NCBI GenBank assembly: GCA_012295275.1
Contig: CM022668.1
Coordinates: 12,524,001 to 12,588,000 of the forward strand
Reading direction: 5' to 3'
DNA from: Chrysomallon squamiferum
Taxonomy: Eukaryota; Animalia; Mollusca
DNA length: 64,000 bases
The notes under the pieces: model-generated
Databases searched by the model: none
Told to the model about the DNA's origin: nothing
Seen by the model: only the letters and a program-made list of their open reading frames with translations
Shown here: positions 3,612 through 62,546 of the stretch, piece by piece
How positions within the stretch are numbered: the first letter of the stretch is position 1
How the letters are laid out: each line of letters begins with the position of its first letter
Translations under genes and position numbers: made by a program

Positions 3612-3789
3612 GTACAACGTATGATATGTACACACCGACAATGAGGAACTGTCAGATACTTCCAGATTAAGATTCTAATTAAACACCTGTCATAATTAAT
3701 ATTTTTTTGTACATAATTATAGATCTGTATTAGGTGAATTCTGCTACTCACTGTGAAAAGATTATTTTTTCTTTTTATTTAAAGAAGGA

Positions 3790-3860
<71 letters not shown>

Positions 3861-4323
3861 AATTGCAGCTCTACAACTGTATGATAAACTTCAATTTTTC
3901 ACTATTAATACTTTTTATAGTAAAATGTTAGAATGAATTTATATACATTTCACATTATCTTCCATGTCTTCTCATTGCTTGGTGATTAATAGATACAATA
4001 TATCCAACAGAAGGAGGGGGAAAAATGTTTATTTCTAGTTTTTCTTTGTTTTGGGGTTTTAAAAAAAAAAAAAAAAAAAAAAAAATTATAATAATAATAA
4101 TAACAAATTTGTTATTTGTAAAAATAAAGAAAAATTGTCCTTCATATAGCAAAAAAGAAAATTATTTTTCACAGTGAGTAGTGGAATTCACCTAATACAG
4201 ATCTATAATTATATACAAAAAAATATTAATTAAGACAGGTGTTTAATTAGAATCTTAATCTAGAAGTATCCGACAGTTCCTCATTATGTTACACTGTCAG
4301 TGTGTGTATCATATGTTGTGTAC
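3612..4323. mobile_element. Long inverted repeat / MITE- or foldback-like element
   Basis: ~3612-3800 is the near-perfect reverse complement of ~4130-4323 (e.g. AGATCTGTATTAGGTGAATTC vs GAATTCACCTAATACAGATCT); inner poly-T and poly-A tracts extend the symmetry. Confidence 0.7.
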
Positions 4324-6670: not shown

Positions 6671-7114
6671 TAGATTGATATATATTGATATACTTTCAAG
6701 GGATTGTTTTACTCTAGTTTATTAAATATATTTTGTTGTTTTCCTTGTAGTAATATTAAAACTGATTACTAACATTTATTATTTATCAGCATTTACTAAA
6801 TATATTTGTTATTTTTCCAAGTGACTCAATTGTTTATTGAAATCAATCTTTACTGACAATAAATTACGAAAGTAACATAATAGCCTCACTTGGATATACG
6901 AAAACTGTGACTTTCCATTATTTAATAAACCATATATTTGAAATACCTTTACTGCTAAAAAAAATTATCAATTTCTATAAAACAAATTATCTCGATAACT
7001 TGATATTTTCCCAACCAGTTAGTTAACTTTCTGTTTATTTTGTAATTTAAAATATTTTTCATTTAGTAAATTCAAATTCATAAAATAATTTTACTGTTTT
7101 TTTTTTAATTTCAG

Positions 7115-7468
7115 GCGGAACTCGCAAAGTCGATGCTGGGGACTGTCTGGAATTCCGAATCGACTTGAGCAACCGTGCCCCGGAGTTATCTGCCCCTGAA
7201 TTTGTCGTGAAACCACGGCGACAGTTTGTGGATGAAGGACAGCCGGCAGTTTTCAAAATGTCCTTTGACGGATCTCCAGACACTACTTTGTCGTGGACGG
7301 TCAATGGCGATCCACTTCCGAACGATTCCAGATACAAAATGTGTGAGAAAGATGGCTTTCATTTTCTGGAAATAGACAAAGTGTGCGAATCTGACAAAGG
7401 AAAATATGAATGTACGCTGGAAAATTCTGCTGGAAAGACGTCGGTGTCTGCCGATTTGGAAGTGTTTG
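7115..7468 (+). CDS. MYLK: MYLK-like exon: I-set Ig domain 1
   Basis: tttcag|GC...TTT G|gtgag; APEFVVKPRRQFVDEGQPAVF...LSW...DKGKYECTLENSAG is an I-set Ig signature. Confidence 0.9.
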
Positions 7469-8262
7469 GTGAGTAGATACAGATTTTGTTATCTTGGTTT
7501 TTTTGTTGTTGTTTTTGTTGTTTTTTTAAATTTTATTTTCACATAGGTTGTGTTTTTAAGATAAAAATTACTTTGAATTGTTGTACAGTGCTGTTGTCTT
7601 TTAATAACTACTTTATAATTTATCTGAGTTGTTCTTTTGTATATTTAAACTTCTTTTTTTACTTTTTATTTTATTTTTTTATTCCAAAGTAATGAATTTT
7701 AATCACATTTGTAGGAATAGGGTTCAAAAGTTTTTTTCCAAATTTAAATTGAAAAATGTTATTATTTCTTTCTTTATTGAAAAATAATTAAGATTAATGT
7801 AGTCTTATTTTAATGAAAATATTAGTGTAATATTATAATTTATTTACTTCTATTCATTGTGAATCATATTATAATAACCTATGTTATAATCTGTATCATT
7901 TTAATTTTAATGAAAATATATTATCATTATTACAATCTGTTTATTATTATTATTATTAGTGTTAGTAGTAGTAGTAGTAGTAGTAGTAAGCTTTTTAATG
8001 AAAATTTATTATCTGTGACAATCCATTTTCTTATTTTTATTATTTTTTAATGAAAATGTTTAATTTGTTTATAATTAATTTTAATCAAAATAGTATTACC
8101 TATGTTTATAACGTCTATTATTTTTTTTTTAAAATGAAAAATTTATACCTGTTTTATAATTTATTTAAATATTAATCAAAATTTAACATCTATTTTATTT
8201 TATTTTAATATTAATTTTAATCAGAATATATTAAATGTATTATAACCTGTTCCATTTTTTAG

Positions 8263-15161: not shown

Positions 15162-17376
15162 GTAATAAAAAAAAAAAAAAAAACTTTTATATTTTTCTTT
15201 TATTTAAAATATTTTTATATCACAGTAACGCTATTCAAATATCAATATATCTTTTTTCAGGTGTGTGATAAGCAATGTATTCATGTACCGAGGTATTTTA
15301 AACTTTCATTCAGTGTAAATATACTGCATTAAAATCTTTTTTTTTTTTTTTTCTGATTATATTTGTATATTTGTATATTCATATATTTACCTTGCAATAC
15401 ACCTGTAGCTGCTGAATTCTGTAATTTGGTGTGTCATTATGAGGCATTGTTATGTAATATTTATTCATTGTTCATAATGGATGTTTAAATATCTTAAAAT
15501 GTTGACAATATCTTGATGAAATAATTTTTGATATTGTTTTGATTGTATTATTATGTTCCTACCTTTTTTTTTAGCCTGTTGTTAAGATATTTTATACAAA
15601 AATCATTAAATATTTGTATATCATTCATAAAGTTGATAATTTATTGATGATTTTAATGATACATTAATATAATTACTTCATCTGACAACTTAACTAATAT
15701 ATTTTCTCACTGGATATCTCATTTACATTAATTCATTTATTCATTCATAATGGATGTATAAAGATTGTTAATATCTTATTAAATAATTTGATATTGTTAT
15801 AAATATATTAATATATTGATATATTTACCTACATCAGATTTCTCATAGCTTATGTACTTTTTGATTGGGTTTCATTTGCATTAATTGAATCATTCATTTA
15901 TAATGGATGCATATAGCTTAATAATATATTATCCAGAATTTTTAATTTAATAATGAATATTTTAATAAATTTTGAAATTTGATGTCTTATAGCTGATTTG
16001 TTTTATGTTTGAGTTTCATTTACATTAATTATTTCTTTGATGATGTATATGTGTGTCTGTATGTATGTGTGTGTTAAAAATATCTTAACAAAAGCTTTAA
16101 TTTAATAATAAATATTTTAATATATATCTCATAGCTGATGTGTTTTCAGTTTGTTATTGGATTTCATTTTCATTCATTGTTTAAGAAATTAATTCAAGGT
16201 CAACATACAAATTAACAACACATACAGAAAGTTTTTAATTTAATAATGAATATATTAATATAATGAGACACTTATCCTTGATGTGTTTTTGTTATTGGAT
16301 TTCATTTTCATTAATTAATGAATAAATTAATTCAAGATGGACACAGAGATTAACAATGTTGTATCAAAGGTTTTTAATTCAGTAACAACTGCATTAGCAT
16401 ATTCATCTATTTACATGCCTAACAGATATTTACTCTGTACTGATGATTCATTCATCACTCATTGATTTATTCATATGTGTGCATTTTGGTTTAGCAATCC
16501 CATTTTCCAAATCATTATGAATATTTTTTTTATTATATTTCCAAAAACAAATATTTATCTGTAATATTAATGCTTTCTGGTCAGCTGTGCCTTATCCCAC
16601 ATAATTATGAACAGTTATTTTATTTATTTATTTATTTATTTTTTTCAAAATTTTAGGTGCTAGAATACTAGCAGTATTTAAGACCTAACAATCATTGTTG
16701 TTAAAACTTGCTATCATAATCGAAAAAAACATTTTAATTTATTTTCATGATTGAATTTCTAAATTTAAAAGTATTAAATATTATTTAATTAATAATTAAT
16801 TTTTATTGAAAGGTATTCAGGTGTTGTCAAATACAAAAATATTTAATTAATTACCTGTTTTAATTTATAATCTGACACCTTGATAGTTTTACTCCTCAAA
16901 TTACTGTAAAAATGTGCTTAGTAATAAATTATTGGTGAAACTTAAGATGCTTTCCGTTATACATTTAAATAGTTCCTTATTTCAAATATTAGACTGTCAA
17001 GTAAAAAATAAATAATTATTTTAAAAAAAAACATTTTGACAGAATTTAAATTTATAAAACTGGTTGTTTGTTTCTTTTAGTTTTTTTTTTTATCATACTA
17101 AATATTTTGTATATATTTTATTTTATTTTTTTGTTTATTTATTTTATTTATTTATATTTGTTGATATTTAATTATGTTTTTCTTAGTATTATATTAATAA
17201 TAATAACAATATTAATAATAAAATAATAATAATAATAATAATTAACACTCACTCACACACACACACACACTCATAAAATACCAGACAACTATTTATTTTA
17301 AAAAAAATTGTAGTTCTCTATTACAAAATACTTCATTATTTTCATTTCTTTTTCTTTTTCCACAAAAAAAAAAAAG

Positions 17377-20300
17377 ACCGAACCAAGAAAAAGCTGATAA
17401 ACCCAAAAACGTGGTTTCCGACAAAGATATAGATCAAAAAGATTTCCGTCACCTCCTAACCCGAACGAAACCAGCTGCTACTCAGAAAACACCCGAACCG
17501 GTGGAACAAACCGACTACAGGAACGTCCTGAAGAACCACGGTGGGATTTTCGACAGGCCCTCTCTCCTGGGACTCCAGTCTGTGAAAAGTAGGAAGAACA
17601 AGTTGTTCCAGAAAGAGGAAACGAGTCCCACGACCGACAACCCGAAGCAGATTGATTTCAGAAACGTTCTGAAAAAGGTTTCTGCTGTTCCTGAAATAGT
17701 CAGCTCCCTAGAACAACACTCTGCGACGAAGTTTGAAACAACAGAGAGAAAAAACAGACCTGGCAATCCACAAGTTGGGAAGAACAGGTCCTCTTTTAAC
17801 AATCTCGAAAATTTAAAAGCAATTCGGAAGGATAATTTCAACGATTTTGATGATCTGGAAAGAAGCAGTGTGGTGAATTCTGGTGAAATAACAGTGTCGG
17901 ATACTCACAATGAAAATTTCAGTAACTCGGAAATTGTCTCTGAGCCAGAAAGCTTGAATGAAATTGCCAGCGAACTGACATCAGATCCTCAGAGGAGAGT
18001 TTTGAAAGCTCGGGAAAAGTCCAGTATGTGAACATTACGGATAAAAACTCCAGTGTTTTGTCATCTGATTTGGAAAACGAACTTTCAAGCAGTTCAGAAA
18101 ATATCATGGATAACAACATGTTTGACAAAAATTCCAGAGAATCATCACTGGATGCAAAGAAAGAAAATTTTGGTTATTCAGGAAACGTTCATGATTCAAA
18201 CATTTTGGGAAAAAGTCACGATACAACAACCAGTTCAGAAAAAATTCACGATACCAAAAATTCAGGACAGATTCACAACCCAAAAAGTCCAGGAAAATTC
18301 CCGAAGAGCAACAACAGCAACAACAAGCCTGCCTCTTCACCACTGAGCAGTTCGGACAAAAAAAACCAAGTCAAGGAAAAACTGGAACGTTTTGAAAAGC
18401 TGTCCTCCCACGATTCTTTGCAACATCGGCGACAAAGCGCTTTCACCATTAAAGACAAACTGAACCATTTCCGGTACATTTCCTCGGAGAAGATCACACC
18501 AGGGGTTCGCTACTTGACGAAGGCGTTTTCCTCAGAGGACAGGCTGGAGCTTAGCGGACCCAAAGATAAAACCAAGGCAAGTTGGAGAGACCACACGCTG
18601 AAGATGATGAAAGACAACAAGCGAATGTATGGCTCTGAGGCAAATTTATCAGCAACCTCGAAGATATTCTCTGACAGAGACCAGCCAGGAGCTGAATCCT
18701 GGAACAAGCTGAGGAAGTCAGAATCGATGGAAAAATTCAGCTTCAAAACGTCGTGCGACTCACCTAAGAGCATCCAGGATAAAATAAAGAAGTTGGAGCA
18801 AGGAATGAATTGCGGCAGACCTCTTGGTGGTAACACGAAGGAGTCGTTGACTCCTGAACGTAGCGTTAAGAAGACATCGAACATCAGCAGCAGCAGCAGC
18901 AAAAGCGGGCTAATGAAAAGATCGTCACTTCAGTTTGAACCAGTGACAGAAAAGCTGTCAAGTGCCAAAAACAACAAAAACAACAACAACAACAACAACA
19001 GCATGTCAAGTAAAAAGTCTTCAGCTGTGCTAGAACCAGCAATACACGAGAAAGAGAACGAAAATATCAATAATAACAATGTGTCGAGCCATCTGACCTC
19101 AAAGCTGACAAAGCTGACAAAGCTGGCAGCTCTAGAGGTCAAAGTTCCTTTGAAACCCAAACAGCTGGACTTCAGAAATGTTTTGGGCAAGCAACATGAT
19201 GTTGGCAGCCTGGAAGCAAAATCTGTGAACAAGCAAGATGATGTTGTGACTAAACACAAAGACCATCTGGCTCAGGAGCCAAAAGGAGCTGTTAGCAAAC
19301 ACAAAGAACATTTGGTTCAGGAGCCAGTAGGAGCCAATACCAAGCACAAGGACCATTTGGTTCAGGAGCCTTCAACAGGAGCTAATGGCAAACACAAGGA
19401 CTATCTGGTTCAGGAGCCTCCAGTAGGAGCTAACAGCAAGCACAAGGACTATCTGGTTCAAGAGCCTCCAGTAGGAGCTAACAGTAAGCACAAGGACTAT
19501 CTGGTTCAGGAGCCAAAAGGAGCTATCAGCATGCACAAGGTGAATTTGGTTCAGGAGCCTACAGGAGCTGCTAAACATGTGGCCAAACTGGATCAGGAGC
19601 CAGCAGGAGCTGCTAGCAAGAACAATTATGATTTCAGACAAGCAAGAGGTGCTGCTAGACAAAATGATGAAGGAAGTGATCTTCAGTCTGTGAAAGACCT
19701 TGGTAAAAACAATACACAAGTATATAACATCAACAGATCAGATATCCCTGGCAGGCAAAATGGCACACCAGACTTTGTCATCAAGCAAAATGATATAACT
19801 AACATAGTGATCAAGCAAAATACCACTCCAGACTGTCAGAATAAGAAAAACGAGAACAGAAGTGATGTTCCAAGCAAGCCAAACTATGCATCAGATTTTC
19901 ACATCAAGCAGAAATATGTATCCGATCTTGCAGACAGTTCTGATATCGACGATGAGTCTGATATGACGAGTGATCGGGAATCTGATACAAACGACAAAGA
20001 GCTGTCTGATACCGAACAGGAGTTTGACTCTTCATATGACCAGAAATCTGATATGAAGTACAGATACCCGCGGAAATCTGATTTTCTCAGAGGATACAAG
20101 TCCGACATTGTTGTCAGCGAACAAGAGTCTGATATTTTCAGTGAAGATAAATCCGATATTCTCAGCGAAGGAAAATCGGATGTTCTCAGTGAAGGGAAAT
20201 CGGATGTTCTGAGCGAAGGAAAATCTGATACTGTAAGTGAGGATAAATCTGATGTTGTGTGTAAGCAGCCACCAAAGGTTAGGAAGAGCTTGTGCGACCA

Positions 20301-20385
20301 GAAAGTGAAGTATGGAAGCAAGGCTGTTCTGGAATGTCTGATCACTGGGGACTCAGTAAACTGGTCGCTGAATGGTAAACAAGTG
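17377..20385 (+). CDS. MYLK: MYLK-like giant exon (~3 kb): DFRxxL actin-binding motifs, low-complexity and repeat linker, start of Ig domain 5; apparent frameshift at ~17962-18028
   Basis: Phase-2 acceptor aaaag|A CCG, donor GTG|gtaagt; ORFs 17411-18031 and 18028-20484 overlap in different frames; DFRHLL, DYRNVL, DFRNVL x2; ends PPKVRKSLCDQKVKYGSKAVLECLITGDSVNWSLNG. Confidence 0.8.
19252..19620 (+). repeat. Coding tandem repeat: 8 units of 14-16 aa (KHKDxLVQEPxGAxS)
   Basis: Visible in both translation and DNA (AAGCACAAGGACTATCTGGTTCAGGAGCC). Confidence 0.9.
20100..20260 (+). repeat. Coding tandem repeat: ~6 units of 8 aa (SDxLSEGK)
   Basis: SDIFSEDK SDILSEGK SDVLSEGK SDVLSEGK SDTVSEDK SDVV. 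Confidence 0.85.
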
Positions 20386-20419
20386 GTAAGTGTTTTTACT
20401 TTGAAAATCGGTCAGTTTG

Positions 20420-20453
<34 letters not shown>

Positions 20454-20894
20454 GTGTGTGTGGATGTTTGTATATGTACTCTGAGTGTGTTTGTGTGTGT
20501 GTGGATATTTGTATATGTACTCTGAGTGTGTTTGTGTGTGTGTTTGTATTTGTACTCTGAATGTGTTTGTGTGTGTGTGGATGTTTGTATATGTACTCTG
20601 AGTGTGTTTTTGTGTGTGTGGATGTTTGTATATGTACTCTGAGTGTGTTTGTGTGTGTGTGTGGATGTTTGTATATGTACTCTGTTTGTGTGTGTGTGGG
20701 ATGTTTGTATATGTACTCTGAGTGTGTTTTTGTGTGTGTGTTTGTGTGTGTGGATTTTGTATATGTACTCTGAATGTGTTTGTGTGTGTGTGTGGATGTT
20801 TGTATATGTACTCTGAGTGTGTTTTTGTGTGTGTGTATGGATGTTTGTATATGTACTCTGAGTGTGTTTGTGTGGATGTTTGTATTTGTACTCT

Positions 20895-35154: not shown

Positions 35155-35401
35155 CAAACACACATTATGTGCACTCACATGCACTCACAAACACACATAT
35201 ATATAGTCAAAAATGCATATATACATGCATACATATATATATATATATCTACAGAGAGAGAGACAAATATGTATATACATACATACACACTCACACACAC
35301 ACACACACACACACACAGACATATAGAGAGAGAGAGAGAGAGAGAGAAAGAGACAGACAGACAGACAGACATTTTTATTAAAATACTGATGCTTTTCACA
35401 G

Positions 35402-35743
35402 TATTGGAGGTGGAGAATTATTCGAGCGTGTCAGCAGCGACGACTTCTGTCTAACCGAGCGCGACTGCATCCACTTCATGCGACAGATCTGCAGCGGCGT
35501 TGCATACATGCACACCAAGGGCATCATCCACCTTGACCTCAAACCGGAGAACATCCTCTGCATAGCCGAAGACAGCAACCTCATCAAGATCATTGACTTC
35601 GGCTTGGCCCGTCACTTCAATGAAGGGGAGAGCGTCAAGGCGATGTTTGGAACACCGGAGTTTGTTGCCCCTGAAGTTGTCAATTACGATGAGATTAATT
35701 TCGCGACTGATATGTGGAGTCTGGGAGTCATTTGTTACGTCTT
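35402..35743 (+). CDS. MYLK: MYLK-like exon: kinase catalytic core (subdomains V-IX)
   Basis: tcacag|T ATT GGA GGT GGA GAA TTA TTC...GTC TT|gtaagt; IIHLDLKPENIL, IKIIDFGLAR, FGTPEFVAPEVVNYD, TDMWSLGVICY typical of MLCK. Confidence 0.95.
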
Positions 35744-35744
35744 G

Positions 35745-36225
35745 TAAGTTTATAATTATATTTGTATTTTAGTGTAAAGGGTTGAAGTATATAATTATAT
35801 TTGTATTTTAGTGTAAAGGGTTGAAGTTTATAATTATATTTATATTTTAGTGTAAAGGGTTGGAGTTTATAATTATATTTGTATTTTAGTGTAAAGGGTT
35901 GGAGTTTATAATTATATTTATATTTAAGTAAAAAGGTTGAAGTTTATAATTATATTTATATTTCTGTACAAAGGGTTGAAGTTTATAATTATATTTATAT
36001 TTAAGTGAAAAGGGTTGAAGTTTATAATTATATTTATATTTAAGTAAAAAGGTTGAAGTTTATAATTATGTTTATATTTAAGTGAAAAGGATTGAAGTTT
36101 ATAATTATTTCAGTGTAAAGGGTTGGAGTATATAATTATATTTGTATTTGAGTGTAAAGGGTTGGAGTTTATAATTATATTTGTATTTTAGTGTAAAGGG
36201 TTGGAGTTTATAATATTATATTTAT
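35745..36225. repeat. ~40-bp minisatellite (AGTTTATAATTATATTTGTATTTTAGTGTAAAGGGTTGA)
   Basis: About 12 copies starting inside the splice donor. Confidence 0.9.
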
Positions 36226-40148: not shown

Positions 40149-40268
40149 TTTCGGCTGTCTGTTCATGCCAGTAGTACAGGTGCATTTTAAATCCTTACTG
40201 TCCCATTCTGACTACCTTGGTTTGTTGTTTGGCCCATGCAGTGCATGCTTGCTTTTTCCATTGTGCAG

Positions 40269-41108
40269 AAAACTGGTACTGCAATACGAGCGCTGGGCCG
40301 CATGGCATCGTTGCAACGCTTGTTAAGTTCCAACCCCAGCAGCAGCAGTGGCAACACCGCCTCTTGTAGTTCGACTGGGAGTAACAGCGCAAGCACTGGT
40401 TCCCTCTCAAGTCTCAACCCGTTTTCATCTCCAATTAACAAGGTACACGAAGATGATGCCGACGCTTCAGAAAAGGCAAAGAGAAGGGAGATAACTCCAG
40501 GAAGCCCCAGCCCCAGACAGGGAAGGGAGATGACTGGGGAAGAAAAAGATGAAAATGTCTTCACCGAACAGTTCTCCAAATCGAGGAAGCCTACTCAGGT
40601 GTCACAAGAATTCGTTAGCAAAAGGGAGATAACCGGTAACGGGGACCATTTTTTCAAAGCGGTGCCAACGGAGAAAAATTCCCAAAGTGAGTCAGGTCAT
40701 AGTTTAGACTGCACTGCCATTTCTGCCGCAGACAAATTGAATCCCACTGCTCAAAAAAACAATGGACACATCACAAACGGATTCGACACCAACTCGAAAA
40801 GTTCAGATTTGCGTCCAAAGTTTGTGAAGAAGATGGTCGACTGCCAGGCATTCAAAGGCGATGTCGTCAGGTTTGACATCAAGGTTGCTGGCAACCCGTG
40901 TCCCTCGATATCGTGGTATCATGAAGATGAGGTGGTAGTCGAGGACCACAGACACATTGTTGAAATCGGTGGGTATGGGCAGTGGTCGCTGATTATTCGC
41001 AAAGTGACCGAGGATGACGATGGAGAGTACACGGCGAAGGCTACTAATTCATGCGGGGAAATTTCCTGTTCTGCCGAGCTTATTATCTGCGGATCAGGAG
41101 CATTCTGA
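40269..41108 (+). CDS. MYLK: MYLK-like last coding exon: calmodulin-binding segment, Ser-rich linker, C-terminal telokin-like Ig domain
   Basis: gtgcag|AAA ACT GGT; spliced ARRKWQ-KTGTAIRALGRM closely matches the smMLCK CaM-binding peptide ARRKWQKTGHAVRAIGRL; PKFVKKMVD...GNPCPSISW...DDDGEYTAKATNSCG; TGA at 41106-41108. Confidence 0.93.
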   Translation, partial: KTGTAIRALGRMASLQRLLSSNPSSSSGNTASCSSTGSNSASTGSLSSLNPFSSPINKVHEDDADASEKAKRREITPGSPSPRQGREMTGEEKDENVFTEQFSKSRKPTQVSQEFVSKREITGNGDHFFKAVPTEKNSQSESGHSLDCTAISAADKLNPTAQKNNGHITNGFDTNSKSSDLRPKFVKKMVDCQAFKGDVVRFDIKVAGNPCPSISWYHEDEVVVEDHRHIVEIGGYGQWSLIIRKVTEDDDGEYTAKATNSCGEISCSAELIICGSGAF

Positions 41109-54804: not shown

Positions 54805-55005
54805 ATGGGGAAGGGAAGCCAAGGAATGGTGAACGGGATTGAGAAGGAGATTAAAACATTTACTCGGGAGGATGTAAAGAAACATGACCAGAGGGACGAC
54901 AAGTGGATCGTGATCCAGGGAGAGGTTTATGACATAACTAAGTGGGCTCGAAGACATCCAGGTGGAAGCAGACTCATCAGCCACTTCGCTGGGCAGGATG
55001 CCACA
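54805..55005 (+). CDS. Fads: Front-end fatty acyl desaturase (Delta5/Delta6-type), coding exon 1: cytochrome b5 domain
   Basis: Acceptor ttccag| at 54766; MGKGSQG...KWIVIQGEVYDITKWARRHPGGSRLISHFAGQDAT|gtaagt (HPGG heme motif). Confidence 0.93.
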
Positions 55006-55552: not shown

Positions 55553-55699
55553 GATGCCTTTCGAGCTTTCCACAACAACCTGACTGCAGTCAGCAAGTAC
55601 CTGAAACCCATACATGTAGGAACTCTACCTGAGTCAGAGCAGAATGACAGCGAACTGCAGAAAGATTTCAGAGAGCTGAGAAAAACAGCAGAACAAATG
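55553..55699 (+). CDS. Fads: Desaturase coding exon 2
   Basis: tttcag|GAT...ATG|gtgaga; DAFRAFHNNLTAVSKYLKPIHVG...KDFRELRKTAEQM. Confidence 0.93.
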
Positions 55700-56333: not shown

Positions 56334-56480
56334 GGCCTCTTCAAACCAAACCCACTGTTTTTTGCAATGCATCTTGGTCACATTTTGCTGCTGGAGGTTA
56401 TGGCGTACCTCATCCTTCGGTACTTCGGAACAGGCTGGTTGCAGCTCTGTCTCTCCATGGCTTGTTTTGTTGTAGTAGAG
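56334..56480 (+). CDS. Fads: Desaturase coding exon 3 (transmembrane segments)
   Basis: tcccag|GGC...GAG|gtaatg; [49 protein letters not shown]. Confidence 0.92.
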
Positions 56481-57799
56481 GTAATGTACAATATGTTTGT
56501 GTATTACACGGGTTTGTGGTTAATAACAAAGGGGCATTCTCTGTATGTTGAATATATTTGATATGTTTGTAATAGATATTTTTTTTTTTTTTTTTTTTTA
56601 CCTATGTTACATAGGTTGGTGGTTTACAGCTGCATAAAATGTCACTGTTTTGTTTGGATATGTTTCATGTGTTTGTAGTAGTAATGGATTTTTTTTCATA
56701 CACTACATGTTTGAAAATGTTTTGAAATGTTTGTGTTAATTGTCCTTGATATAGTTAGAGCTATATACATCATGGATTGTCAGATACATTTGCAATAGTC
56801 ATTATTATTATTTTTGCAATTGTTATAGTTATTATTATCATCATAGCCACTATTTATTATTATCATCATTAATTTGTTCATGTTATAATTATAATTATTG
56901 TCATCATTTTTGTGTTTCAGCATTTTTATTAGTTAAATTTTAAAAATCTTTTATGATGTAGGTGACAATAAATTAATGTGACAGCTTAAATTATTTTATT
57001 TTTGAACCTCTATAAGTCTATTCAACCTTTTTTTCATGATGGTTAAAATGAAAAATATATAAAGAAAAGAAAGGGGAAAAGGGCTGGGAAAATATTTACA
57101 TTTCAGAACTTTCTGTTGTCCATACTTAATCAACTCTAATATTATTATATTATTAGATCCATAATTTCTTTAATATTTATACTTGATAATAAGATTGAAA
57201 ACTGTCATGGATGGACCATCTAAACTAAAAGTACTTAATGAGAATCAAGCGCATTTTATTATTGACAATTCAAGATAGCTATGCAACTTCAAAGCTTGTA
57301 AACTAATTATGTGATTGACAATTTAAAATAAATATAACAGATATTAACATCAGGGGATCCAGGCTACAGATAACTGAAGTTTTGTTGAATATCTACAGAA
57401 GTTAGTGGGAGACACTAATTTCGTATCCAGGTTATTCAGAATCGTGTACACTGACACATTTTGAATTACAAACAGCTTAATCGTGTTGATGTTGGAGTTG
57501 TAGCTGATGTAGTAGAGTAAACAAGGACACAAGCCTTGTGTGTGTGTGTGACCCCTTTGTAAATAGATTTAAATTTATTTGTTTAAATGTTTTTATTGCA
57601 GAAGCATGTTGATTTTTTTTTTTTTTTCAATTAATCTGCATGCCTTATGTACATATATATATAATCATTAATTAATATATGATATAGAGAAATGTAGTTT
57701 GATTTCCACTGAACAAAATTCTCTGAATTTCTGATATTTAATAAAAATGTATTCCAACTATTTTATTGTATAAAAATAAATAAAGGAGCAGAATTATGT

Positions 57800-58090
57800 T
57801 TATTGAAAGTAATTTAGACCCAGGATTTACATGTATTGAAATTATTTAGACCCTTTATTTTCTGTATTGAAATGAATTTAGACCCTTTAATTCTGTATTT
57901 ATATGCATTGAAATATATTTAGACCCAGTATTTTCTGAATTGAAATATAGTTAGACCCAGTATTTTCTGTATTGAAATGTATTTTGACTGTATTTATATT
58001 TACTAAAATTAAATTATACTCTTTATGTGCATGCATTGAAATGAAATTAGACTCACAATTTACATAAAATGAAGTTAGTTAGACCCTGTT
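57800..58090. repeat. Degenerate ~37-bp minisatellite (GTATTGAAATGAATTTAGACCC)
   Basis: About 7 copies. Confidence 0.75.
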
Positions 58091-58246
58091 TTTATGTGTG
58101 AAACTGCCCTTGTTAGTCTTGTTGTTTTTAAAATGTGTGGATATTTAATTATTAATTTATCTTTTTCTTTAATATGTATATAGATATATATATATATATA
58201 TATATATCATTTTTGTTTTTTCTTTGTCACTGCTTATTTTTTCTAG

Positions 58247-58357
58247 GCACAAACTGCCTGGATTCAGCATGATTTTGGTCATCTTTCCACTTTTAGTAAT
58301 TTATTTAGTAGCAAACTGGATCATCTTCTCCATTATTTTGCAATGGGATTCATTGAG
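58247..58357 (+). CDS. Fads: Desaturase coding exon 4a: first histidine box, variant A
   Basis: ttctag|GCA...GAG|gtaaac; 111 nt, phase 0-0; [37 protein letters not shown] (not in the ORF track). Confidence 0.88.
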
Positions 58358-61101
58358 GTAAACTGCAGTGCGTGGTGCTGGCTGTTTGTTTGTTAGTCTG
58401 TGCATGCTGCACTGTTTTACTTAGTCATGTCTTTACCAGAAGTGACAGGATTCGGTTTATTTCAGTTATCTTGCTTGTTAAAGCTTGATTTTAAAACTAA
58501 TTGTATTACATATTTTAAAAGTTACTTGTACGCTTTAATGTAGAAGTAACTGATTTTTGAATTTTAATTTTTTTTTTTTTTTTTTTTTTTAGAATTATGC
58601 ATACATTAATTCATTTTTTTTTTTCATTTAATATTCATTAAACATTTAACAAACAAAAATATATATATATATATATATAGTTGTCAATTCAAAAGCATTT
58701 TAATTGTAAAACCAAAATTGCTCTGTAAAGTATTTTAGTTGTATTATGGCTACTACTGCTGCTACTGTTGGTATTATTATTTGTAATACTAGTAGTAGTT
58801 GTAATAGTAGTTTATATTTTTATTATTTACTTATTTATTTTATTTAAGTTTTAAATCCTGTAATATAATTTTTTTTATTTTTTTTTTTTTTTTTTAATTT
58901 TTTTTTCTTATGGTCATTAAAATACAGATTTATTCTTAAAATGATTCAGAAGTTTTAGTTACTTATAAAAATAAACACAAATTTTACAATATGAAAAAAG
59001 CTATGAACCAAACGATAATGAAAATTATGCCACAACAAATAATCAGAATCCTGTCATTTCTGGTTCGCAAATGCATGCATTTTCTGGACAGATTTTCTTC
59101 TTTTTGTTTTTAGGAAAGTTTCACAAAATAATAGAGAAAAATATGGTTTATATTTAGATAGATTCCACTTGGGAGCCATTGCTTTATAAAGTTTCATTCT
59201 TTTGTTTTTGGTTTTATCTGTAAACCTTTATTCAGGGATAACCAAATTTAGATGGCTGGGTTTATGCTTGATAATTTTATATTACCCACATATATGAAAA
59301 CAGTACTAAAATTGATTCCTGAAATTAGACCAATTTTCTTTAAAAAAAAAAACAATAAGCATTAAAGAACTGTTATTGTTTTTCAAAAATAAATGTCTAA
59401 AAACAATTTTTAAAGAAGTACATTCAAGGATTTTAATTTGAGAATATCATTCTTGAAGAGGAATTTAAATTATGTAACTTTGAAACAATAAAACAATCCC
59501 TAAATAAATAAATTCATTAAAATTAAAAACCCAAATAATAAAATAAAAAATAAAAAATAAAAACGTGAAAAAAAACTGATAAACAATGGTTATTCATCTG
59601 GAAATACTGTTCATTATCATTATTATTACATTAATAAAATATTGTGAAACTTTACGAGCACATTTAAATTTTTATCCCAATGCACCCCATGCTTGTGAAT
59701 GCGCTAAAGTTGGCACGCAATCAAGCTGGTTTGTTTTCCTAATTCAAAATTTCTGCTGAATTTTTTTTCCTTAAACTTCTCACATTAAGATTTTTTAAAA
59801 GCTTACATTCAGGATAGCTATTTGCAAATTAAATTGTTACTTTTCAAAATGTATAAGTGATAAAAATAGGATGGGTTGGTCACTGATGGGAAATGGAATA
59901 TTTTTTATTTTTTCATTTTCCTTCGTAAAGAAATAGACCAAAATACAACTGTAGAAATGATACCTGAATTTTCAGTTCCAATAACACTAGAAACAAATAA
60001 TGCAAAAACCAGATATTTAATAAAAAAAAAAAAAAAAAAAAAAAAATAAAATCTGAAACCACTAGCCTTTTATTTATATTTGATACTTTAAAAAAAAAAA
60101 AAAAAAAAAATCTCTTTAGTACTGTGCATTCTTCAGTTGTTGAAGAAAATTTAAATTACAAACAAAGAAGAGAGAAATCAAAACTGAATCTAAATTAATG
60201 TTAGACACCGTATCTTTAAAAGATTAACCCTCAAATTTGATTTTCTTACTATTTTGCTATTTATATATATTTTTTATATTTTTTATATTCTGCATGTTTT
60301 CAACTCAATCAGAAGACAACCATCATGGCTTTTATTTGATGATCGTGGTTCAGCAGTTGATAGAAATAAATGGTTGCCATAATAACTTGTCCCCAACCAT
60401 TGTGATATTTATTTTTATGTTGCATGCATATATTCATTTTAGGTTTTTTTTTTTTCTCATTTTTTTTCTTTCTTTTTTTTACCTTTTTGTCATAAGTTCA
60501 TCCAATTTGCATTCATGCTGTGAAGAAAAAGGGACTGTTTATTTTTCGGAAGAAAAAAGTTTTTGGAATGGTGGTGTTTTTTTTTATATATATATATTTA
60601 CTATTTATTTATTATCATCTCATTCAGTCATTCATAAATCCATCAAATTTGTTAGGCAGTGAAGAAGTCAACCTTCGTTGTTGTTGTTTTTTTTCAGAAG
60701 AAAAACAAAACTTTGAAGAATTGCATTTTTAAACATTCACATCTCTTCTCTTTTCCATCCTTCATAAATCCATCGAATTTGTATGCAGGGAAGAAATCAG
60801 TCATTGTTTTACAAGATACCTGAAACAGTGCCTTCTCTATTTATTATTCTTATTTATTCTTTCATGAAACCCAAATGCAGTGAACCATGAAGGTCATAAA
60901 CCTAATCAAAGGCATCACAAATGCATCCACTTCTTTACCCTTTACAGAAAAGAAAAGAAAAGAAAAAAAAGGAAAGGAAACTGGATTGATCATCAGAAAT
61001 GATGACAAGGTTTTTGAAGAAACGACCATTTCGGCCATCTTTGTTCCCGACTGTAACAAAATATTTCTTATAATTTGAAATTGTTCCCCTTATACTTACA
61101 G

Positions 61102-61203
61102 GGTCAGGTCGGATGGATTCAACATGACTTTGGCCATTTATCAGTTTTCCCTAAATCTTACATGGATCATTTCTTTCACTACTTCACTGTCGGATTCATA
61201 AAG
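61102..61203 (+). CDS. Fads: Desaturase coding exon 4b: first histidine box, variant B
   Basis: ttacag|GGT...AAG|gtaacg; 102 nt, phase 0-0; [34 protein letters not shown] (not in the ORF track). Confidence 0.9.
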
Positions 61204-62546
61204 GTAACGTTTTAGTGTCTACAGGAGCAAAAAAAAACAAAAAAAATTAAACTATGTAAAAAATTAAAAAAAAAAAAATTAAAAATTAAGAAATCTTTTT
61301 TAGAAAAATTTAAAAAAGATGATAAATGTTTTTTTATAAATTTAAAAAAAAAAAATTGAAATTTAAATAGAAAAAGGAAAATAGTTTAAAAAATAAAGAT
61401 TAATAGATAAATAATAAATACAATTTATAATTTAAAAAAATAGAAAAAGAAGATAAATAAAAATAATTATAATTTAAAAATTTAAAAATTAAATGGAAAA
61501 GTATGCTATATTTAGAATTCCCCCCATTAACAACAATAATATAGCCAAACTGCATGTGTAGTTTGCAGTAGAAAATATTTTAACCTATTCGATATATTTA
61601 GTACATTTACTAATTTTATGTAATCACTGTACAGCATTTAGTTGTAGTGTAAATTAACATTAAATTTGTAATCCCTTGAATAAGCAGATAATTAGCATAT
61701 ATCTCAGTTGTTTTTGGCTATAATATTTTAGTTAATAGGAAATATCTGTTATAATTAACTAGAAATTAGCTTAAAATAAATTCAGTTAAAATTAAGTTAA
61801 ACTATAGTTATACTTGAGACTTAACTTACAATACGGTTTTGACGAAATTGAAATAAAATTAGTTAAAATGAACTTAAAATTTAGTTATGTTTAATATAAA
61901 ATACAATGAGATTTAATCAGTTAAAGTAAAATTAGTTTCAAAATACAATAATTATTGTGTGTTTTCTAAGGTGTCAGTTTTAATGGGTTTTTTCAATACG
62001 AAAAATATCTGAGCAAATTTTTCTTTTTTGTTTCAATGTTTTGTAATTATAATTTTTCGTCTAACTGAAAAATATTACATTGAGTTATTGATTTAATTAG
62101 CTTATTTACATGATTTATTGATTTGTTGTCAATTAATTTAATTATTAAAAGTTTTGTTTTTTATCGGTACACTGACTGATTTTTAAAATCCGTTTACAAT
62201 ATTCAACTCAGCACATATTTCCTGTCATTCCCTTTAAAACTAAGGCACCTGTGGGCACACAGAAGCACAGTTTTACCCAGTACATTCTGCTTCATGCTTG
62301 ATTCTAAATGCTTTGCTTTGCATAAACTGGGCACATGTTATTAAGAATAAACATTATAATAACCCTGGTGATGTGTATTAACATTGTTATTAACCTGGTG
62401 TAATATGTAAAACATGTGACTATGAAAGGTTTATTAATTTGTATGAATATGTTTATGTGTATAATTTATAATTGGAAGTATTTAAGAAAAGGTGTATAAA
62501 TAATAATATACAGCTTGTGATATGTGATATGCTGTATTTATAAATT

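Follow-up and report, generated by a model that had tools for sequence, protein, structure and literature searches.

The question raised by this locus is why one gene for a front-end desaturase would carry two versions of the exon that encodes its first histidine box, and what a choice between these exons would do to the enzyme. The window analysed here, a stretch of 64,000 nucleotides from Chrysomallon squamiferum, contains the beginning of such a gene, which starts at position 54805 on the + strand (Table 1). The first-pass annotation had described two homologous His-box-1 exons, here called 4a (111 nt, 37 aa) and 4b (102 nt, 34 aa), and our analysis confirmed that both are stop-free, phase 0-0 and flanked by AG/GT at the positions given in Table 1. 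Both contain HDFGH, i.e. the HxxxH of His box 1. In tblastn searches of the 64 kb, 4a and 4b matched each other with an E-value of about 1e-14, and the next-best match elsewhere had an E-value of 0.12. Exons 1 to 3 were each found once in the window, which bears out the earlier statement that no copies of them lie between 4a and 4b. At 21 of the 34 aligned codons the two exons encode the same residue, in 12 cases by a different codon. The silent sites are saturated (pS 0.96) at a pN of 0.26, in agreement with the earlier view of an old duplication with both copies under purifying selection. The additional suggestion that 4a is the more deviant copy holds only in part: 4a is indeed longer and has AW for GW, but the Met that it carries at the residue separating the two copies is the commonest state in single-exon relatives. 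A six-frame scan of the window did not find His boxes 2 and 3 on the 3' side of 4b, and exon 5, the remaining 3' portion of this gene and any third exon-4 copy must therefore be located beyond the window end.

Table 1. Exons of the desaturase gene and candidate intronic elements, in positions of the 64,000-nt window.
Feature	Positions	Strand	Description	Remarks
Exon 1 (coding)	54805..55005	+	Start codon, beginning of the cytochrome b5 domain with HPGG	201 nt; Pfam Cyt-b5
Exon 2	55553..55699	+	Remainder of the b5 domain and linker	147 nt; AG/GT, phase 0
Exon 3	56334..56480	+	First membrane helices	147 nt; AG/GT, phase 0
Exon 4a	58247..58357	+	HDFGH (His box 1), loop with 3-residue insertion, next helix with Met at the diagnostic site	
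Intronic arm S1	58435..58462	+	Candidate control element	Complementary to 59037-59064
Intronic arm D	59037..59064	+	Candidate docking site	Pairs with S1, more weakly with S2
S2	60981..61020	+	Candidate competing partner of D	About 80-120 nt before the 4b acceptor
Exon 4b	61102..61203	+	HDFGH (His box 1), canonical length, Val at the diagnostic site	

The closest protein was found in Gigantopelta aegis, a vent snail with bacterial symbionts. Exons 1, 2, 3, 4a and 4b of the window are 81%, 84%, 65%, 81% and 94% identical to their Gigantopelta counterparts, so that 4a is as conserved as exon 1. The Gigantopelta gene (XP_041374313-316) has the same two exons in the same order and the same 3-residue insertion in 4a, and its products are annotated merely as isoforms X1-X3 under Delta6/FADS2-like names. 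Isoform X2 (444 aa) uses 4a and X3 (441 aa) uses 4b, the two being identical elsewhere, and X1 (478 aa) includes 4a followed by 4b, with the remainder as in X2 and X3. Pfam recognises Cyt-b5 and FA_desaturase domains in both single-exon isoforms, and the orthologue also contains His boxes 2 (HxxHH) and 3 (QxxHH). In the window, the Cyt-b5 domain with HPGG was detected in exon 1 (PF00173, E 1e-19). The best named mollusc match of the Gigantopelta orthologue is a Haliotis Delta5 desaturase (68%), followed by other clade-A genes. Its identity to the clusters of Octopus AEK20864, Chlamys nobilis AIC34709 and Haliotis ADK38580/ADK12703 ranges from 59 to 68%, and these clade-A Fads share the Cyt-b5 (HPGG) plus FA_desaturase architecture and the His boxes. 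Judged by its sequence, the window gene belongs to the clade-A (Delta5-type) front-end desaturases of molluscs, the deep forks of the gene tree being unresolved.

To see how widely the exon pair occurs, we compared the members of 29 protein clusters, the oyster cluster being represented by 15 of its 34 members. Isoform pairs that differ in the exon-4 segment were present in 19 other species. Twelve of these are gastropods (Gigantopelta, four Haliotis, two Patella, Pomacea, Littorina, Biomphalaria, Physella and Aplysia) and seven are bivalves (two Saccostrea, Magallana gigas, C. angulata, C. virginica and two Mytilus). In 18 of the 19 species the pair shows no difference outside exon 4 and 10-17 differences within it. 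The abalone cDNA pair ADK38580/ADK12703 has 13 differences inside exon 4 and 2 outside, and the Aplysia pair has 16 in exon 4 and none elsewhere. In three other Haliotis species the same two forms are RefSeq isoforms on one contig. As far as annotation goes, no pair was seen in the scallop, Dreissena, clam, Elysia, land-snail or Octopus/Argonauta clusters, nor in the second Mytilus, second Patella, Platynereis, chiton, Lottia, Lineus or Owenia clusters. The Octopus/Argonauta and scallop clusters showed a single exon-4 form only, unlike the window gene. A metagenome scan matched 11 loci. One of them, L001, is a genomic contig encoding a mussel-like protein; its exon 3 is followed, as in the window, by a Met-type and then a second, here Leu-type, exon of matching phase. 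The other ten comprise eight genomic loci with one matching exon and two spliced ones; at one locus (L002), exons 3, 4 and 5 follow each other without a second exon-4 copy between them. Among the 20 pairs of the window and the 19 species, the 37-aa form of 4a with its 3-residue insertion is restricted to the window and Gigantopelta, and one extra residue is present in 4a of other marine gastropods and of Pomacea.

The two copies are told apart by a single diagnostic site, located five residues from the exon end. In each of the 21 pairs (the 20 pairs plus contig L001), one copy has Met at this site, and the other has Val, Ile or Leu. The Met copy is upstream in all nine cases of known order, namely the window, L001 and seven gene models with both exons; for the other 12 pairs the order is circular, because upstream and downstream were assigned by similarity. 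Single-exon relatives mostly have Met (Octopus, Argonauta, chiton, scallops, venerid clams and Sinanodonta), the exceptions being Dreissena with Ile and Solemya with Val. When lineages were compared, copies at the same position were closer to each other than copies at different positions in 12 of 15 comparisons, a score reached by 2 of 64 label swaps. When the diagnostic column was left out, this was the case in 10 of 15 comparisons, and 4 of 64 label swaps did as well. A tree of the exon only, which has few columns, placed all 21 downstream copies on one side of a branch with support values of 39/73. These comparisons favour a single origin of the exon duplication before the split of gastropods and bivalves, with independent duplications not being rejected (p-AU 0.10 and 0.45).

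Land snails and neogastropods appear to have gone a different way. In a tree built without exon 4, the land-snail genes form two sister clades. One of these has Met-type exons (Bradybaena, Candidula and one JGI protein) and the other Val-type exons (Bradybaena, Candidula, Arion and one JGI protein). Likewise, the neogastropods Nucella and Babylonia each have one Met-type and one Leu-type gene. Both lineages had genome duplications (PMC12056724). These would be two apparent cases in which splice forms were split into paralogues after genome duplication, and the presence of one exon type per annotated paralogue suggests that the exon types have non-redundant roles.

The pairs also bear on published gene counts. 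In Surm et al. (PMC4550275), A. californica XP_005090573/XP_005090577, H. discus ADK38580/ADK12703, C. gigas 2/3 and Nerita Fadb/Fadc are considered to be recent gene duplications, and this reading recurs in a 2026 paper (PMC13299295). On the distribution of differences described above, the abalone 'Fad1'/'Fad2' and Aplysia pairs are exon variants of one gene, with a duplicated exon that is shared and probably ancient, and not recent, independent gene duplicates; the 'two desaturases' of Haliotis are two exon forms of one gene. C. gigas 2/3 (EKC30965) is likely to be the same case, and the lengths of Nerita Fadb and Fadc (444 and 443 aa) fit the pattern of 35-aa and 34-aa exons.

The proposal that one gene makes alternative use of the two exons is supported by the single-exon pairs in 19 other species, by the abalone cDNAs and by oyster transcripts. 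The cloned abalone cDNAs are single-exon forms. Among the 15 of 34 oyster cluster members listed, eight have a Logan-assembly source, and all eight are single-exon, five of the 4a type and three of the 4b type; in this same set, both 467-aa forms with both exons have no Logan source, and none of the other both-exon forms listed has an assembly source either. The stricter part of the proposal, mutual exclusivity, fared less well. Single-exon forms of both types do occur in relatives, but seven lineages have annotated gene models that include both exons (Gigantopelta, Patella caerulea, Littorina, Biomphalaria, two oysters and Mytilus), and three species have models with an exact deletion of the exon, so that exclusivity is leaky at best. 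Judging from the transcripts of relatives, it is likely that 4a and 4b are spliced in a mostly mutually exclusive manner. As in the two-exon mutually exclusive clusters of Dscam, 14-3-3 zeta, Mhc and srp, which arose by tandem duplication (PMC6071210), the exons are homologous, tandem and of similar length. Unlike in those clusters, the part that is switched belongs to a membrane enzyme and contains ligands of its catalytic metal.

The position of this segment in the enzyme was examined in an AlphaFold model of the 4b form (mean pLDDT 91). Exon 4 encodes the end of helix 151-176 with H173, a loop from H177 to residue 183, and helix 184-198. The diagnostic residue is number 195, and His box 2 starts fifteen residues later. 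No solved front-end desaturase was found, as a PDB sequence search matched b5 domains only and Foldseek returned two chloroplast motor-complex chains (TM ~0.5) and b5 domains. The helix equivalent to the exon-4 helix presumably lines the substrate tunnel in SCD1, and in Delta6 enzymes of algae and fungi the preference for substrates is affected by the region between His boxes 1 and 2. Since exon 4 supplies the end of the H173/H177 helix, the loop and the next helix, an exon swap would be expected to retune the cavity beside the irons, for example by favouring polyunsaturated substrates in one form and saturated or monounsaturated (NMI-forming) ones in the other.

The chemical effect of such a swap is best judged from the abalone pair. 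The first-pass annotation had suggested a switch between Delta5 and Delta6 or Delta8 activity. However, the abalone enzymes differ almost only in exon 4, and both had Delta5 activity in yeast, as stated in a review (PMC3826146); a Delta5/Delta6 switch is thus unlikely. At the same time, some seep-bivalve paralogues of the Delta5 clade accept 18:1n-7 and others do not (PMC13299295, Table 3), and substrate range therefore varies within this clade. In these animals the pairs GhFads1/2 and AmFads1/2 differ on 18:1n-7 versus 20:3n-6, and they appear to be separate genes and not splice forms. GhFads1 and GhFads2 (both 435 aa) were considered as splice forms and rejected as such, since their cloning primers differ and their qPCR primers differ outside exon 4. 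The seep-mussel pair hence serves as an analogy only. Separately, GhFads2 and GhFads3 share a printed forward primer. Clade-A enzymes are known to make NMI fatty acids (PMC5215697), and sequence-based prediction of regioselectivity is described as not established in PMC5037126. Taking these points together, we consider it somewhat more probable than not that one gene with two tandem His-box-1 exons, of which mostly one or the other is included, gives rise to two Delta5 desaturases that differ in substrate range or efficiency and not in the position of the bond. A difference in substrate range, for example in NMI fatty acid synthesis, which the first-pass annotation had also suggested, is the predicted form that we prefer.

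It could also be that both forms carry out the same chemistry and that the two exons are kept for tuning stability, turnover or electron transfer to tissue, diet or temperature. This view draws on the Delta5 activity of both abalone forms (PMC3826146), on the invariant His box and on the location of most 4a/4b differences in the loop. It is weakened by the diagnostic site, at which all 21 pairs show the fixed difference between Met and Val/Ile/Leu, and by the one exon type that each paralogue has after duplication, which together speak for a specific, non-redundant role of whatever kind. We regard it as a serious minority possibility. A further alternative is that 4a and 4b are two cassette exons without exclusivity, and that the both-exon and no-exon products represent a regulated, inactive enzyme. 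The lengths of both exons, being multiples of 3 nt, and the gene models with both exons or none are compatible with this. So is a predicted fold of the both-exon form, in which residues 171-206 have pLDDT values below 50 and the rest folds; yet these low values may come, at least in part, from a shallow alignment over the extra copy. Moreover, the cloned and assembled transcripts of relatives are single-exon, and an on/off switch needs no maintained divergence between the copies. This explanation is therefore improbable.

At least for the lineage with the 3-residue insertion, a change of regiospecificity between Delta5 and Delta6 or Delta8 could be imagined because the 37-aa form of 4a is confined to the window and Gigantopelta among the 20 pairs, and because single residues can switch desaturase specificity (PMC7072455). 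Besides the Delta5 activity of both abalone variants, a second argument opposes it. The vertebrate Delta5/Delta6 sites named in that source are FADS2 positions 216, 244, 245 and 323, and these correspond to Gigantopelta residues 209, 237, 238 and 317 when a 444-aa shark FADS2 stands in for the rat numbering; all four lie outside exon 4 (residues 166-199). In addition, the shared part of the Gigantopelta protein has Met at the equivalent of FADS2 Arg216, and Delta6/Delta8 activity of molluscs is reported for other genes (PMC13299295). We consider such a change of regiospecificity hardly probable, and a shade less so than the cassette exons. Lastly, 4b might be part of another paralogue or the product of a misassembly, for which the position of the following exons beyond the window leaves some room, or 4a might be a decaying pseudo-exon. 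This is very improbable and already largely refuted by the occurrence of these two exons, in this order, in a single gene model of Gigantopelta and on contig L001, by the lack of a second exon 1, 2 or 3 in the window, and by the conservation of 4a at the level of exon 1.

If, as we prefer, two Delta5 enzymes of different substrate range arise by mostly exclusive splicing, some mechanism would have to enforce the choice. Simple enforcers of exclusivity are steric exclusion, frame-based decay and spliceosome type (PMC6071210). Steric exclusion was ruled out by the length of the 4a-4b intron (2744 nt), frame-based decay by the fact that both exons are 3n, and the use of U12 sites by the finding of none in the 54-64 kb region. 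As none of these three can impose the choice, it might be set by RNA pairing or by splicing factors, and the alternative pairing of D with S1 or with S2 would be a candidate. The S1:D stem comprises 28 bp with an energy of -36 kcal/mol and a pair probability of ~1.0 over 58436-58453, and it outscores 100 of 100 block shuffles. Its score is 50, and stems with a score of 47 or more were present in 3 of the 14 other 7.5-kb windows used as controls. S2 is the second-best of 132 partner sites for D (-22 kcal/mol); the energy alone is unremarkable, and the position is what stands out. An energy of -22 kcal/mol was reached by 0 of 200 shuffled D arms in the stretch preceding 4b and by 16 of 40 anywhere in 7.5 kb. 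In L001, the corresponding intron contains a different 19-bp stem that lies above 100 of 100 shuffles, and no comparable stem partner was found near the downstream exon of this contig. As a candidate element complementary to two sites, D resembles the docking/selector systems of Dscam, 14-3-3 zeta, Mhc and srp (PMC6071210). In contrast to these systems, the candidate docking arm and both of its partners are here located in the intron between the exons and not in a flanking intron. It is no more than tentatively that we propose D:S1 and D:S2 pairing as controlling exon choice. A generic listing of inverted repeats in this sequence gave poly-A/T pairs only. The motif TGCATG was enriched (7 versus 25, p 0.02), a post hoc result too weak for use.

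A bolder scenario can be drawn, in which a splice switch that predates the gastropod-bivalve split would exchange the first iron-binding segment and so toggle the Delta5 desaturase between EPA/ARA synthesis and the conversion of saturated or monounsaturated fats to NMI fatty acids, with Met versus Val/Ile/Leu in the helix preceding His box 2 as the determinant and competing intronic RNA pairing as the control. In land snails and neogastropods the two states would have been frozen into separate genes once the genome had duplicated, and in the lineage of the window the lengthened 4a would be tuned to bacterial n-7 fatty acids. As a whole, this scenario is speculative and rather doubtful.

The duplicated-exon arrangement was not found described for Fads in the literature covered, which left most subscription journals outside its scope, so that an earlier mention is possible. 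In the accessible parts of the mollusc and invertebrate Fads literature, splicing is either unmentioned or mentioned once on an unrelated point. The earlier impression that the arrangement is undescribed thus stands as far as descriptions go, but the isoforms were already implicit in automated RefSeq annotation. The exon pair is real and conserved, an apparently undescribed variant of a known splicing type, with a functional meaning being likely.

The counts of molluscan PUFA genes would change accordingly, as published duplicates in at least Haliotis and Aplysia are splice forms, and qPCR primers placed outside exon 4 would not distinguish the two forms. The 20 pairs also represent a natural series of chimeras with 10-17 residue differences next to the di-iron site, which could serve the long-standing question of what sets the substrate choice in front-end desaturases. 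Finally, the choice between the two exons may bear on NMI fatty acid synthesis and on the omega-3 capacity of farmed abalone, oysters and mussels.

An intronic stretch shared by the Chrysomallon desaturase gene and L001, a genomic contig from the metagenome scan encoding a mussel-like protein, lies shortly 3' of exon 4a in each (window 58455-58496 and L001:1996-2039) and is 77% alike over 44 nt. Its score was equalled in 3 of the 544 intron tile pairs, this pair being counted among the three. The stretch would be a weak lead towards a conserved splicing element. TGCATG hexamers, which we take to be RBFOX-type sites, occur seven times in window 56481-61700, versus 25 times in bases 1-54000 (p-value of 0.02 in a post hoc comparison), and one of them is located 44 nt past the 4a donor.

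Outside the desaturase gene, the window contains the features listed in the Table. The D[FY]RxxL motifs of the kinase-like gene presumably represent the actin-binding motif of smooth-muscle MLCK. The inverted repeat is possibly a small transposon, and the 239-aa open frame had no Pfam match.

Features of the window outside the desaturase gene
Feature	Position	Strand	Details
Inverted repeat, long, near-perfect	3640-4290		arms of ~120 nt from 3640 and 4165; score 242
Myosin-light-chain-kinase (MLCK)-like gene	7084-41108	+	I-set Ig domains, Ser/Thr kinase exon, D[FY]RxxL motifs
I-set Ig domains of this gene	7084-7476 and 40212-41108	+	
Long exon region of this gene	17246-20484	+	several D[FY]RxxL motifs
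Ser/Thr kinase exon of this gene	35382-35747	+	
Open frame, 239 aa	45344-46063	-	

In PMC13299295, Table 1 prints one forward primer for both GhFads2 and GhFads3, two of the seep-mussel desaturases, and the running text assigns the conversion rates of 31.37 and 76.55% the other way round from Table 3. The gene labels may be permuted.

Additional fast-evolving paralogues, each with one exon 4, were found in limpets (proteins P0083, P0211-P0214 and P0005), where this exon is 4a-like and encodes 35 aa, and in Mytilus (P0056 and P0093), where it is 4b-like. Most of them have LAH in place of LQH ahead of the His box, and in Patella caerulea their locus tags adjoin the two-exon gene. In Haliotis asinina, the 4b form is present alongside two 4a-type isoforms, X1 (P0126) and X2 (P0130), which are a single residue apart, within exon 4. 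This difference perhaps reflects a recent third exon-4 copy in this species.
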